Assembly (NCBI GenBank): GCA_038227865.1
Contig: JBBRPO010000017.1
Coordinates: 21,365 to 85,364, forward strand
Length of the DNA: 64,000 nucleotides
DNA from: Caulobacterales bacterium
Lineage (GTDB): Bacteria > Pseudomonadota > Alphaproteobacteria > Caulobacterales > Caulobacteraceae
Direction of reading: 5' to 3'
Part shown: in pieces, positions 60,637 to 62,574 of the stretch
How positions within the stretch are numbered: the stretch's first letter is position 1
Layout of the letters: each line of letters begins with the position of its first letter
The notes under the pieces: model-generated
The model's database searches: none
Told to the model about the DNA's origin: nothing
What the model saw: only the letters and a program-made list of their open reading frames with translations
Program-made: the position numbers and the translations under genes

Positions 60637-60651
60637 GTTCCGTGTTTGTTC
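60637..60651 (+). promoter_or_regulatory. Alphaproteobacterial LexA (SOS) box
   Basis: GTTC-CGTGTTT-GTTC, a perfect GTTC-N7-GTTC ending 15 nt before ATG 60667. Confidence 0.8.
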
Positions 60652-60666
60652 TCACGGGAAGGTCCA

Positions 60667-60957
60667 ATGGATTATGCGCGGCCGGAAACCCATGCATGGT
60701 CCCTGGTGGGGTTCGACGTTCCGCTGGCGCACGGCGTCGGGCCGGATCGCCATCTTCGCGCCCATTGCCGCGTGTGCGGCCGGCGCGTCGTGTTTGATCC
60801 GACGCATTGGATCAGACAGCACCTGGGCGGTCTGCGGCTCACCCACTTCGAGACGCGGCTGCGCTGCGTCTGCGGCGCGCGCCAGGCGAGGCTTGAGATC
60901 TGGAGCGGGCCGGCCGAACCGGGGCCGCCCGATTCTTCAATTTATTGCTTTCGGTGA
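60667..60957 (+). CDS. Small Cys4 zinc-ribbon protein A
   Basis: HCRVCG ... LRCVCG. Confidence 0.72.
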   Translation: MDYARPETHAWSLVGFDVPLAHGVGPDRHLRAHCRVCGRRVVFDPTHWIRQHLGGLRLTHFETRLRCVCGARQARLEIWSGPAEPGPPDSSIYCFR

Positions 60958-60974
60958 GCGGAAAGCGGGCGCCT

Positions 60975-61244
60975 ATGCCTGAACCCAATCGGCCGCCGTG
61001 GCAGGTGGGCGCCGACCTCGACGGATGGGCGATCTGGGCGCTGGTCGCCGACGCCGTGACCGTGCGCCTCGAGTGCGAGAGCTGTCACCATACGGCGGAG
61101 TGGACGCCCGGCGATCTGGACCGCCTGTTTCGCCGAGACCCGGCCAAGACCTTTAGCCAGATCGGCCCGAAACTTCGCTGCAAGGCGTGTCGGTCCGAAT
61201 GGGTGAGGGTATCACGTGCCTCGCCGGCCATGCCCGCGGGATGA
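60975..61244 (+). CDS. Small Cys4 zinc-ribbon protein B
   Basis: ECESCH ... EWTPGDL ... PKLRCKACR. Confidence 0.75.
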   Translation: MPEPNRPPWQVGADLDGWAIWALVADAVTVRLECESCHHTAEWTPGDLDRLFRRDPAKTFSQIGPKLRCKACRSEWVRVSRASPAMPAG

Positions 61245-61256
61245 CCGAAATTGACG

Positions 61257-61454
61257 ATGTTCCAGAACCTTCGGCGCGTCATAGGGGCCTGCGAAACCTT
61301 GAAGATCCGATGTGAGCGCTGCGGCCATCTGCGCACCTGGACCCGCGAGCAGGCCTTCAAACTCTATGGCGGAGACGCGACGCCGCACGACATCAGGGAA
61401 AAATCCTGTTGCGGCGCCTGCCGCGCGCGGAAACACTGCGTCGTCTGGATCTGA
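61257..61454 (+). CDS. Small Cys4 zinc-ribbon protein C
   Basis: RCERCGH ... TWT ... CGACR. Confidence 0.72.
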   Translation: MFQNLRRVIGACETLKIRCERCGHLRTWTREQAFKLYGGDATPHDIREKSCCGACRARKHCVVWI

Positions 61455-61474
61455 CCAGCGGGAGCGGCCGGCCG

Positions 61475-62242
61475 ATGTGCAACCTATACGCCATGATGCG
61501 GGGTCGTGCCGAGGCGGCGGCCCTTGTGCGGGTGATGACGGACCGCAACAACAACCAGCCGCCGATGCCGGGCGTCTATCCGGACTATCCGGCCCCGGTG
61601 ATCGTCAACGGCGAGGATGGCCGGCGCGAGATGCGCGACATGCGCTGGGGCATGCCGACATCGAAGCAGGCGATTTTTCAGGCCGCCACGAAGCGGGCGG
61701 ACGGTCTGCGCGCGAAGAAAACGGAGTTTGATTTCAACGAGCTTCTCCGCCTGGAGCCCGACAAAGGGACCACCAACGTCCGCAACACCATGAACGCCCG
61801 TGGCGCGCCCAACGCCCATTGGCGGCCCTGGCTTGGCCCCGCCAACCGCTGTCTGGTTCCGTTCACGTCGTTCGCAGAGCCCGACCAGGACCATGAGCTA
61901 ACGCGCAAGAACATCTGGTTCGCTCTCGACGAAAGCCGGCCACTGGCCTTCTTCGCGGGGATCTGGACTCCGCACGCCTGCGTTCGGATGAAGAGCAAGG
62001 GGTGGGAAGCGTTTGAGGCTTTCGGCTTCCTCACCACGGAGTCGGCCGAGCCGGTGAAGACCTATCATAACAAGGCCATGCCCGTGATCCTGACAACGCA
62101 AGCCGAGTGGGACCTATGGTTGAGCGAAACGCCGTGGGAGGGGGTGCGCCATCTCCAGCGCCCGTTGCCTGACGTGCTCAAGGTAGTGGCGATCGGCGAG
62201 CGCAAGGACGAGGCCGTCCCTGGCTACGCTTCCGGCGCGTAG
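61475..62242 (+). CDS. SOS response-associated peptidase (SRAP/YedK/HMCES family)
   Basis: MCNLY (Cys2), MRWGMP, TTNVRN, RCLVPFTSFAEP, FAGIW, HNKAMPVIL; GGAG SD. Confidence 0.93.
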   Translation: MCNLYAMMRGRAEAAALVRVMTDRNNNQPPMPGVYPDYPAPVIVNGEDGRREMRDMRWGMPTSKQAIFQAATKRADGLRAKKTEFDFNELLRLEPDKGTTNVRNTMNARGAPNAHWRPWLGPANRCLVPFTSFAEPDQDHELTRKNIWFALDESRPLAFFAGIWTPHACVRMKSKGWEAFEAFGFLTTESAEPVKTYHNKAMPVILTTQAEWDLWLSETPWEGVRHLQRPLPDVLKVVAIGERKDEAVPGYASGA

Positions 62243-62547
62243 CGCCATTCACCGTCATAGGGATGCGGAAACACCGCCACTTCGCGCGATCCGCATCCGT
62301 CCGGCCCGGAACACGCCAGCTTGGGGACCAGGAGCGCGATACGCAGATCGAGCCGGTCGCCGAACCGTTCCAAAAGGTCGGACGGTGTCCACTCCACCAG
62401 GCGGGGGCAATTCTTACACGCTATACCGAGGCTCCAGCCGTTCATGAGGTAAGTCCGCACGGTGTCCGCGCCGGCCTGCGCCGCGTAGGCGCGTGAGATC
62501 AGCTTCTCGGGTGGGCGCTTGATGGTCGAGGGCGATCGATCAGACAT
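62224..62547 (-). CDS. Small Cys4 zinc-ribbon protein D
   Basis: ACKNCP ... EWTPSDL ... PKLACSGPDGCG; convergent 19-bp overlap with SRAP. Confidence 0.75.
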   Translation of the reverse strand: MSDRSPSTIKRPPEKLISRAYAAQAGADTVRTYLMNGWSLGIACKNCPRLVEWTPSDLLERFGDRLDLRIALLVPKLACSGPDGCGSREVAVFPHPYDGEWRYAPEA

Positions 62548-62559
62548 GCGTGCAATTTA

Positions 62560-62574
62560 GAGCAGCATGGGAAC
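62560..62574 (-). promoter_or_regulatory. LexA box with one mismatch, upstream of zinc-ribbon gene D
   Basis: Minus strand GTTC-CCATGCT-GCTC, ending 12 nt before ATG 62547. Confidence 0.6.

Follow-up and report, generated by a model that had tools for sequence, protein, structure and literature searches.

Results

Organization of the locus

The window, a stretch of 64,000 nucleotides, contains a gene for an SRAP protein together with four small genes, here termed A to D (Table 1). Open reading frames and translations show that A, B, C and the SRAP gene follow each other in this order in a plus-strand operon with gaps of 17, 12 and 20 nt, and that D is convergent with SRAP, the 3′ end of which it overlaps by 19 nt. 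This confirms the arrangement described in a sequence-only reading of the window, namely three tandem short genes 12-20 nt apart ahead of SRAP and an overlapping fourth gene convergent with it. The short gaps are consistent with co-translation, as is the 2-nt spacing of SRAP from the second zinc-ribbon gene on pNK6c of B. diazoefficiens.

Neighbours of the locus are an IorA/IorB-like oxidoreductase and, directly downstream, the toxin-antitoxin pairs HigBA and Xre-RES; no Ku or DinB gene was found within 3 kb. The SRAP gene is the only one in the genome and all four zinc-ribbon genes are located less than 1 kb from it. The imuA-imuB-dnaE2 genes of this genome are encoded apart from A to D and SRAP, on a different contig (C5).

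Table 1. Genes and putative LexA boxes of the SRAP locus (positions in the window).
Feature	Position	Strand	Description
LexA (SOS) operator GTTCCGTGTTTGTTC	60637-60651	+	exact GTTC-N7-GTTC; 16 nt before the ATG of A
Gene A	60667-60957	+	96 aa; divergent Cys4 predicted zinc-ribbon protein, CxxC ... C-x-C
Gene B	60975-61244	+	89 aa; predicted Cys4 zinc-ribbon protein; B subfamily, N-terminus MPEPxRPPW
Gene C	61257-61454	+	65 aa; minimal predicted Cys4 zinc-ribbon protein; C subfamily, MFQNL...VWI
SRAP	61475-62242	+	255 aa, starts MCNLY; YedK/HMCES family, insertion-bearing alphaproteobacterial clade
Gene D	62224-62547	-	107 aa; predicted Cys4 zinc-ribbon protein; conserved extensions STLKRPP (N-terminal) and FPHxYDxxWxW (C-terminal)
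LexA-like box GTTCCCATGCTGCTC	62574-62560	-	one mismatch; 13 nt before the ATG of D

LexA boxes precede the operon and gene D

The motif GTTC-N7-GTTC is the published LexA box of Caulobacter (PMC12700426), and in this genome it is also found ahead of lexA, imuA, uvrA, ruvC, comM and dnaE. At least 20 other loci, among them L001, L003, L006, L013, L036-L078 and L123 in our numbering, have homologous operons that are headed by a perfect box, and its position is the same as here in L003, L006, L013, L065-L070 and L123. Orthologous D genes have a perfect box at the position equivalent to the LexA-like box of D in many loci, often in common with a divergent imuA gene. The SOS link claimed earlier for this locus is thus supported for the predicted A-B-C-SRAP unit by the perfect box before A and by its conservation at operon heads in other genomes.

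The SRAP protein belongs to a clade with an insertion

The SRAP protein matches the Pfam family PF02586 over residues 1-238 (E = 1.3e-18, 67.8 bits, cut-off 27.1). Its nearest solved structure is the Agrobacterium pAT protein (PDB 2AEG), which aligns over the same residues with E = 4e-50. The motifs SFAEPD and H-x-x-AMPV (YHNKAMPVIL), which we take to be those of YedK Glu105 and His160, align with the same motifs in 2AEG. In YedK and HMCES the N-terminal Cys2 reacts with abasic sites of single-stranded DNA to give a covalent thiazolidine link. With Cys2 and the Glu and His motifs conserved, the SRAP protein presumably cross-links abasic sites via Cys2 too. It is a member of an alphaproteobacterial clade with an insertion of about 40 residues (RAdkLrAKgxxvDFxELLkmEPDkGtTNvRN), at about residues 60-105, that YedK-like SRAPs do not have. 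Members of this clade are frequently encoded on plasmids (350 records).

A to D are related Cys4 proteins

All four small proteins have a hydrophobic strand with a CxxC motif and, 30-35 residues further on, a second Cys pair, as had been noted before and is present in the translations. The second pair is CxxC in B and C, C-x-C in A and C-x5-C in D. B and D both contain the motifs EWTP.DL...F and PKL.C, which had likewise been pointed out.

The proposed paralogy was compared at three levels, and the relatedness exceeds chance in BLASTP, in the whole-genome ORF comparison and in profile-profile alignment. BLASTP gave E-values of 1e-6 for B and D, 1e-5 for B and C and 0.012 for A and D. In a comparison with the 71,730 six-frame ORFs of the whole genome, B, C and D had one another as best matches after themselves, and no further paralogue was detected. 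The D family aligns with the B+C family at a probability of 97.7% (E = 2e-12) and the A family with B+C at 91% (hhalign, E = 1e-6). Judged from these comparisons B, C and D are clearly paralogues, while A is the more divergent, weakest member of the family.

Orthologues differ in number between the four proteins. For A only one clear orthologue was found, in Caulobacter ginsengisoli (L013; 45% identity, E = 1.5e-13), where it is located behind a perfect LexA box that it has in common with SRAP. B orthologues are present in L065, L066, L068 and L070, in the order box-B-C-SRAP. Orthologues of C are many when gathered by alignment search (a single-sequence search gave one relative), and their genes either precede SRAP or are located between dnaE2 and D. 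For D, 65 homologues with 47-75% identity were identified, in which C44, C47, C79 and C85 are invariant. By these alignments, each of the four proteins is an orthologous subfamily in Caulobacterales, A with a single clear orthologue.

AlphaFold2 models of C (pLDDT 84.7) and D (pLDDT 88.7) have strands at both knuckles; in the model of C the two knuckles are accompanied by a helical insert. Foldseek searches of the PDB with both models yielded no significant match (E at least 0.06, TM at most 0.5); the non-significant matches include the zinc domains of rubredoxin, MCM and HypA. When PDB sequences were searched with the profiles, only weak matches to rubredoxin and RPB12 were obtained, and for sequence and fold together the best non-significant matches were rubredoxin, the MCM zinc domain, HypA, RPB12 and YacG. 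Searches of Pfam, NCBIfam, PADLOC and PHROGs with A to D gave nothing above threshold. A to D probably bind zinc through their four cysteines in a zinc-ribbon/rubredoxin-like manner.

Zinc-ribbon genes adjoin SRAP genes in many genomes

Comparison of the neighbourhoods, which had been suggested as a check, revealed that homologues are strongly enriched beside SRAP, imuA/imuB/dnaE2/dinB and LexA boxes. In 25 of 26 usable loci D is convergent on SRAP, end-to-end, with a distance of -4 to 25 nt in 16/30. Altogether, at least one zinc-ribbon gene is present in 33 of the 37 SRAP loci with enough flanking sequence and absent from four. Of the SRAP loci that span 9 kb or more (33 loci), 20 contain imuA, imuB, dnaE2 or dinB.

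Zinc-ribbon genes are also found next to SRAPs of the other, YedK-like clade in unrelated alphaproteobacteria (L110, L112, L113, L114) and next to plasmid SRAPs in Bradyrhizobium and Sinorhizobium. Since they occur beside two SRAP clades and plasmid SRAPs, the pairing arose or was kept repeatedly. At the genome level the co-occurrence of zinc-ribbon and SRAP genes has an odds ratio of 11; genome size and phylogeny confound this value, which counts mostly YedK-like SRAPs. The PF02586 genome search missed the insertion-type SRAP of this genome, and the co-occurrence statistic is therefore a weak argument only.

A wider Cys4 family in Alphaproteobacteria

A to D are members of an uncurated Cys4 family in Alphaproteobacteria that comprises at least 1300 clusters at 50% identity. 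Its members are mostly standalone genes, and about one fifth of Alphaproteobacteria contain such standalone members. A perfect LexA box is located directly upstream in 16 of 29 wider-family loci, about half. This shows the Cys4 family as a widespread predicted member of the alphaproteobacterial SOS regulon; we found no paper that describes it as such. None of the 20 best standalone members has an SRAP gene within 6 kb, so the basic activity of the family cannot require an adjacent SRAP gene.

A search with an SRAP-linked zinc-ribbon protein led to Kiloniellales metagenome assemblies. Long fusions in L133 and L134 were rejected as open-frame artefacts of high-GC DNA, and P0222 (HYR repeats) and P0200 as Cys-rich false positives that are not family members. 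The only variants that look real are proteins with two domains in tandem and a form whose tail is long, acidic and disordered (L131, L132).

Discussion

Possible functions of the zinc-ribbon proteins

We give about an even chance to the reading that this locus is a LexA-repressed DNA-damage module in which A to D are predicted SRAP adaptors that couple SRAP to the translesion machinery. RecA* would cleave LexA, and the operon A-B-C-SRAP and the separately boxed D would be derepressed together. SRAP would then link covalently via Cys2 to abasic sites in single-stranded DNA, and A to D would act as protein or DNA adaptors that target SRAP to damaged single-stranded DNA or time its action and release there. 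They might also couple the SRAP step to ImuA-ImuB-DnaE2 and DinB, the genes of which often adjoin. A to D are plausible SRAP partners; we infer their physical partnership with SRAP as well as the direction of its effect, which could be loading, inhibition or release. It is unlikely, in our view, that the zinc-ribbon family goes further and forms a dedicated LexA-timed control layer. In that case different paralogues would recognise either the SRAP-DNA adduct or the junction of ssDNA and dsDNA. They would load SRAP, set off the reversal or the proteolysis of the cross-link and pass the abasic site to ImuA-ImuB-DnaE2/DinB, and standalone members would do the same in trans. If true, this would be the bacterial counterpart of the still-debated HMCES cross-link resolution step.

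The solitary, LexA-boxed genes that make up most of the wider family fit a different role, in which A to D are general SOS-induced small regulators of a universal target (DNA, RecA/LexA, the replisome, gyrase or the cell cycle) that do not touch SRAP and owe their place beside it only to the joint spread of SOS genes on islands and plasmids. The location of the locus amid toxin-antitoxin genes, the many plasmid records of the SRAP clade and an integrase adjoining SRAP in L003 point in the same direction. However, D and SRAP are paired end-to-end in a near-obligate manner, zinc-ribbon genes are found beside two SRAP clades in lineages far apart, this genome has no paralogue elsewhere, and SOS genes such as recA, uvrA and ruvC do not cluster with A to D; we consider this role somewhat unlikely. 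The toxin-antitoxin pairs directly downstream, together with the short, unannotated ORFs, might also suggest that the small ORFs are non-functional or have no relation to repair and are part of a mobile element, a toxin-antitoxin system or an anti-phage system. This is largely refuted by the conservation of the subfamilies across species at the protein level with invariant cysteines, and PADLOC and PHROG gave no match and no significant match, respectively. The GC3 of the small genes (0.75-0.79) is like that of real genes as well, which leaves a very small chance for this explanation.

Several loci connect the zinc-ribbon genes to polymerases instead. Seven (L003, L011, L023, L054, L059, L072, L074) contain dnaE2-C-D operons without imuA/imuB, in the order LexA box, 155 aa protein, DnaE2, C and D; in six (L036, L045, L049, L067, L077, L078) D and imuA are divergent with a common SOS promoter, and in L141 one standalone zinc-ribbon gene comes after imuA-imuB-dnaE2. 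A to D could thus serve the error-prone polymerases ImuA-ImuB-DnaE2 or DinB, and not SRAP, as accessory subunits, for instance standing in for ImuA/ImuB with those DnaE2 copies that are encoded without them. In the genome analysed here, however, A to D stay with SRAP while the imuA-imuB-dnaE2 genes are on the other contig, and SRAP is present in nearly all D loci versus translesion genes in about 60% of SRAP loci. We regard a polymerase subunit function as quite improbable.

To our knowledge, it is not known how bacterial SRAP/YedK reaches abasic sites and how its DNA-protein cross-link is removed. HMCES gets to the fork by its own PCNA-binding tail. We know of no partner protein of YedK, nor of any experimentally described partner of a bacterial SRAP. 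A small-protein family that shows predicted LexA co-regulation and is kept beside two SRAP clades and error-prone polymerases provides concrete partner candidates, which are testable in tractable organisms such as Caulobacter, Phenylobacterium and Bradyrhizobium, and on Agrobacterium plasmids. Among laboratory strains, the module is present for example in C. segnis, Caulobacter sp. K31 and P. montanum S6.

Comparison with known systems

The SRAP protein resembles YedK and HMCES in its Met-Cys start, the Pfam SRAP domain, the Glu and His motifs and the SOS association. A to D are predicted to have the two Cys pairs on beta-hairpin knuckles in common with generic zinc ribbons and rubredoxin-like domains, but differ from these by a two-helix insert of about 30 residues between the knuckles and by the conserved L...G and R-L-R-C motifs. 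Like the SOS mutagenesis cassette ImuA-ImuB-DnaE2 of Caulobacter (Galhardo et al. 2005, as cited in PMC3765255), the zinc-ribbon genes are predicted to be LexA-controlled; the two are often adjacent, and the operator is often common to D and imuA. ImuA and ImuB themselves have no similarity to A to D.

The closest known arrangement was reported by Aravind, Anand & Iyer 2013 (Biol Direct 8:20, PMC3765255), who used comparative genomics to describe ZnR1->ZnR2->SRAP(->DinB) operons in Bradyrhizobiaceae. Both partners are termed uncharacterised Zn-ribbon-like domains there and are covered by one sentence and supplementary lists that give no function. It was the only paper retrieved by literature searches for zinc ribbon with SRAP, LexA or YedK. 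The sequence-only reading had called the composition undescribed; this does not hold for the gene arrangement, which is listed there, but we found no experimental characterization, and no Pfam or NCBIfam model covers the family.

The two proteins encoded upstream of SRAP on B. diazoefficiens pNK6c, which we equate with ZnR1 and ZnR2 by gene order, match the B+C profile with E-values of 4.6e-10 and 3.7e-7 (hhalign probability 79% and 67%), and a perfect LexA box is located 10 nt ahead of their genes. Both systems consist of small Cys4 zinc-ribbon-like proteins of Alphaproteobacteria that are encoded in tandem, immediately ahead of SRAP in the same operon, and both have an SOS context. The operons described there contain two zinc-ribbon genes, whereas the locus here has four paralogues from four Caulobacterales-specific subfamilies, with D being convergent, preceded by its own box and extended by additional N- and C-terminal segments. 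The listed ZnR1/ZnR2-SRAP neighbourhoods also hold Ku and often DinB, while Ku is not adjacent here. Since ZnR1->ZnR2->SRAP was reported in 2013, A to D with SRAP represent a Caulobacterales elaboration of a known, uncharacterised module.

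Gene organization and the SRAP protein

Genes A, B and C lie in tandem ahead of the SRAP gene, separated by 17 (A-B), 12 (B-C) and 20 nt (C-SRAP), and D converges on it. The SRAP product scores 67.8 bits against PF02586 (cut-off 27.1), starts with Met-Cys and aligns over residues 1-238 with 2AEG, the solved structure of an SRAP protein from Agrobacterium pAT (E 4e-50), including the motifs SFAEPD and H-x-x-AMPV. On sequence grounds, the SRAP assignment is secure. A search of the 5.1-Mb assembly found no second SRAP. GC3 of A-D is 0.75-0.79, like that of real genes in this 65% GC genome.

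A HigA/HigB toxin-antitoxin pair (HigB-like toxin, Pfam E 2.7e-14) directly follows D downstream, and a second pair lies beyond it. GC falls to 0.57 at 63000-63500. Together, the two pairs and the GC drop beside D suggest an island-like setting.

Features of the window and of homologous loci (L numbers) from other genomes
Sequence	Feature	Position	Strand	Remarks
Window	LexA box GTTCCGTGTTTGTTC	60637-60651		exact consensus match, 16 nt before A ATG
Window	A	60667-60957	+	96 aa
Window	B	60975-61244	+	89 aa
Window	C	61257-61454	+	65 aa
Window	SRAP	61475-62242	+	255 aa
Window	D	62224-62547	-	107 aa; 19-nt overlap with SRAP stop region
Window	D box GTTC-N7-GCTC			13 nt before D; one mismatch
Window	HigA/HigB pair	62637-63318	-
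Window	Xre/MbcA/ParS-type antitoxin, then apparent RES-type toxin	63459-64000	+	toxin runs past window end
Window	further exact GTTC-N7-GTTC	2321, 9806, 14495, 17669, 17917, 56291
L001	double zinc-ribbon gene, Phenylobacterium montanum	4422-4973		183 aa
L003	155-aa protein gene	1125-1592
L003	membrane-protein gene between D and SRAP	5740-5940	-
L006	membrane-protein gene between D and SRAP	5306-5461	-
L023	membrane-protein gene between D and SRAP	9513-9704	-
L131	zinc ribbon with long acidic tail	1782-3542	-
L132	zinc ribbon with long acidic tail	1689-3593	-
L153	standalone zinc-ribbon gene / DUF2794-like neighbor	6583-6933		LexA-boxed
L146	standalone zinc-ribbon gene / DUF2794-like neighbor	7728-8129		LexA-boxed

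Relatedness and predicted structure of A-D

BLASTP linked B with D (1e-6), B with C (1e-5) and A with D (0.012); A-B and A-C gave no significant similarity. Among 71,730 six-frame ORFs of the whole genome, the best non-self matches of B, C and D are one another, and an HMM of the four sequences found no further family member in these ORFs. Profile-profile comparison aligned D (probability 97.7%, E 2e-12) and A (91%, E 1e-6) with a profile built from the B and C subfamilies (B+C profile). The sequence-only reading had taken all four as paralogues; this holds for B, C and D, and A is related but more distant. The common core consists of a hydrophobic strand, CxxC, strand, helix, loop, helix, (R/K)-L-(R/x)-C-x2-C and strand, with the second Cys site being C-x-C in A and C-x5-C in D. 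D has 65 database homologues, with C44, C47, C79 and C85 invariant; orthologues of B and C occur in several Caulobacteraceae, and the one clear orthologue of A is from Caulobacter ginsengisoli (45% identity, E 1.5e-13). Judged by these matches, each of the four represents an orthologous subfamily.

Confident AlphaFold2 models of C (pLDDT 84.7) and D (pLDDT 88.7) predict strands at both Cys knuckles with two helices between them, and for D additional N-terminal helices and a C-terminal strand. A Foldseek search of both models against the PDB returned nothing significant (best rubredoxin, MCM zinc domain and HypA; E >= 0.06, TM <= 0.5). C (pI 9.4) and A (pI 9.1) are basic, and B and D are close to neutral. 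Tandem double domains occur in the 183-aa P. montanum protein and in P0180, P0216 and P0244, a hint that these domains can function as pairs. No informative enzyme fusions were found among family members.

Conserved neighborhood with SRAP and translesion genes

Searching for the D family with one genome per species gave 27 loci, including one spurious Bacillota match and one contig ending at D. SRAP is convergent with D in all 25 loci with a readable flank, and in 16 of 30 D loci measured the distance between the two stops is -4 to 25 nt. The reciprocal SRAP-clade search gave 46 loci, 37 with enough flank; 33 of these 37 have at least one zinc-ribbon gene within approximately 4 kb. The enrichment near SRAP for which the earlier reading had proposed a test is clear.

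Three arrangements recur. The order LexA box-B-C-SRAP, as in the window, is found in L065, L066, L068 and L070; A is added only in the window and, beside a C-like gene, in C. ginsengisoli. In L003, L011, L023, L054, L059, L072 and L074, a LexA box precedes a 155-aa protein gene, dnaE2, C and D, the latter converging on SRAP. In L036, L045, L049, L067, L077 and L078, SRAP converges on a D that is divergent from imuA-imuB-dnaE2, with one box for both. Altogether, 20 of the 33 SRAP loci that span at least 9 kb have imuA, imuB, dnaE2 or dinB within 6 kb. The genome of the window itself carries imuA-imuB-dnaE2 on a different contig; its zinc-ribbon genes thus accompany SRAP rather than the polymerases.

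The conserved 155-aa protein, which has an internal repeat (..FEALRPYV..L..L.TSAFHFT..), is always encoded before a dnaE2 copy without imuA/imuB and stands behind a LexA box; possibly it is a DnaE2 accessory protein not yet described. Several Phenylobacterium loci carry, between D and SRAP and in SRAP orientation, a gene for a predicted membrane protein of 51-66 aa (..LLALACVLLALMC..AACFR.ALA.GETPA.A.TDCR). In P. montanum, the gene for two fused zinc-ribbon modules lies directly upstream of D, and its annotated start and a LexA box overlap; a plasmid of this species has another SRAP-D pair, flanked by dinB and imuA.

LexA boxes

The alphaproteobacterial LexA box consensus is GTTCN7GTTC (PMC12700426). 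In this genome the motif is also located upstream of lexA, imuA, uvrA, ruvC, comM, dnaE and a radical-SAM SOS gene, and is thus a marker of the LexA regulon here. Perfect boxes precede the double zinc-ribbon gene of L001, the 155-aa-dnaE2-C-D operon of L003, an operon ending with D in L006, B in L065, L066, L068 and L070, and D in at least 12 further loci. In C. ginsengisoli, SRAP and the orthologue of A diverge from a 74-nt region that contains a perfect box. The promoter context GACTCGCC...N...GTTC upstream is common to the window, L003 and L006. The predicted SOS link is supported by the exact box before A and by boxes kept in the same place at homologous operons.

The window contains seven exact GTTC-N7-GTTC matches against 1.6 expected, a number reached in 0 of 100 shuffles. 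Most of the six further matches have GC-rich spacers, unlike the typically T-rich spacers of this genome's clear SOS boxes.

A wider family in Alphaproteobacteria

Of 401 genomes drawn evenly from the Alphaproteobacteria, 76 contain relatives detected by the B+C profile, and among 1.84 billion representatives the profile matches at least 1300 clusters (50% identity) with E <= 1e-3, 88 of which reach E <= 1e-10. The wider-family consensus (..DVFCWCNRCGHNAV..LGP..PVPE.G.RLRCS.CGSKDVATRP.WP) aligns with B+C (probability 98.3%, E 1e-14) and D (probability 95.4%, E 2e-8). Perfect LexA boxes lie at most 100 nt upstream in 16 of the best 29 loci, with approximately 0.05 expected by chance. The wider family is large, uncurated and, as its boxes indicate, itself a widespread LexA-regulon member.

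None of the best 20 loci has SRAP within 6 kb, and one of them comes after imuA-imuB-dnaE2. A minority of wider-family genes adjoin SRAP (at least 5 of approximately 95 matches, against approximately 0.5% expected), either upstream on the same strand (L110, L114) or divergent with a common box (L111, L112, L113); the SRAPs concerned lack the insertion and belong to the ordinary YedK-like type. Pfam-detectable SRAP is present in 68 of 76 zinc-ribbon-positive genomes versus 142 of 325 others (odds ratio 11, p 4e-14), a ratio to which we give little weight because genome size and phylogeny confound it and because the whole-genome PF02586 search missed the window's own SRAP (hmmscan E 1.3e-18), insertion-type SRAPs being evidently under-detected.

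Two loci of one genus (L131, L132) encode an N-terminal zinc ribbon followed by approximately 500 acidic, Pro-rich, low-complexity residues, with a conserved C-terminal peptide (LSKTIAALRGMLELDGR.KR). In L153 and L146 the standalone gene adjoins a DUF2794-like gene (..FTR.EL..LL..Y...VA.GEWRDYA..).

Possible function

The feature is real; it is conserved and makes biological sense. On the best reading from gene context, to which we give an even chance, A-D are SRAP partners in an SOS-induced unit, in which these small putative zinc-binding adaptors would work with SRAP at damaged single-stranded DNA, often with ImuABC or DinB polymerases alongside. The many solitary family members indicate that the basic activity needs no adjacent SRAP gene, and they keep alive the possible but rather less probable reading that the proteins are general SOS effectors. 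The near-obligate D-SRAP pairing, the repeated and independent pairing with two SRAP clades and the tight spacing within operons all speak for a direct functional tie with SRAP. The dnaE2-C-D operons could instead point to accessory factors of error-prone polymerases, which we consider improbable. A-D are the first concrete candidates for a partner of SRAP in bacteria, and the module merits bench work.

Comparison with known ZnR-SRAP operons

The composition had been thought undescribed, which did not hold: the system is not of a new kind. Among the operons in the supplement of Aravind et al. (2013) are "<-Ku||ZnR1->ZnR2->SRAP->DinB->" and similar ones from Afipia and Bradyrhizobium, as well as "<-DnaE2<-ImuB<-ImuA||SRAP-><-?<-?" from Caulobacter sp. 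K31 (PMC3765255). We found neither experimental work on the ZnR-SRAP module nor a later mention of it in the literature after 2013. At a Bradyrhizobium diazoefficiens plasmid locus, a perfect LexA box is followed by the genes for a Cys-rich protein of 131 aa and a CxxC...CxxC protein of 149 aa and, after a further 2 nt, by SRAP. Both proteins, equated with ZnR1 and ZnR2 by gene order, match the B+C profile (hmmsearch E 4.6e-10 and 3.7e-7; hhalign probability 79% and 67%), and so does the 129-aa product of a gene located upstream of the SRAP gene of Sinorhizobium pSinB. Such matches at the ZnR gene order place the window module in the class first noted in 2013. It shares with the ZnR1/ZnR2 operons the zinc-ribbon genes upstream of SRAP and, at the B. 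diazoefficiens counterpart, the LexA box; it differs in having four paralogues, and is a Caulobacterales variant of this uncharacterized SOS module.
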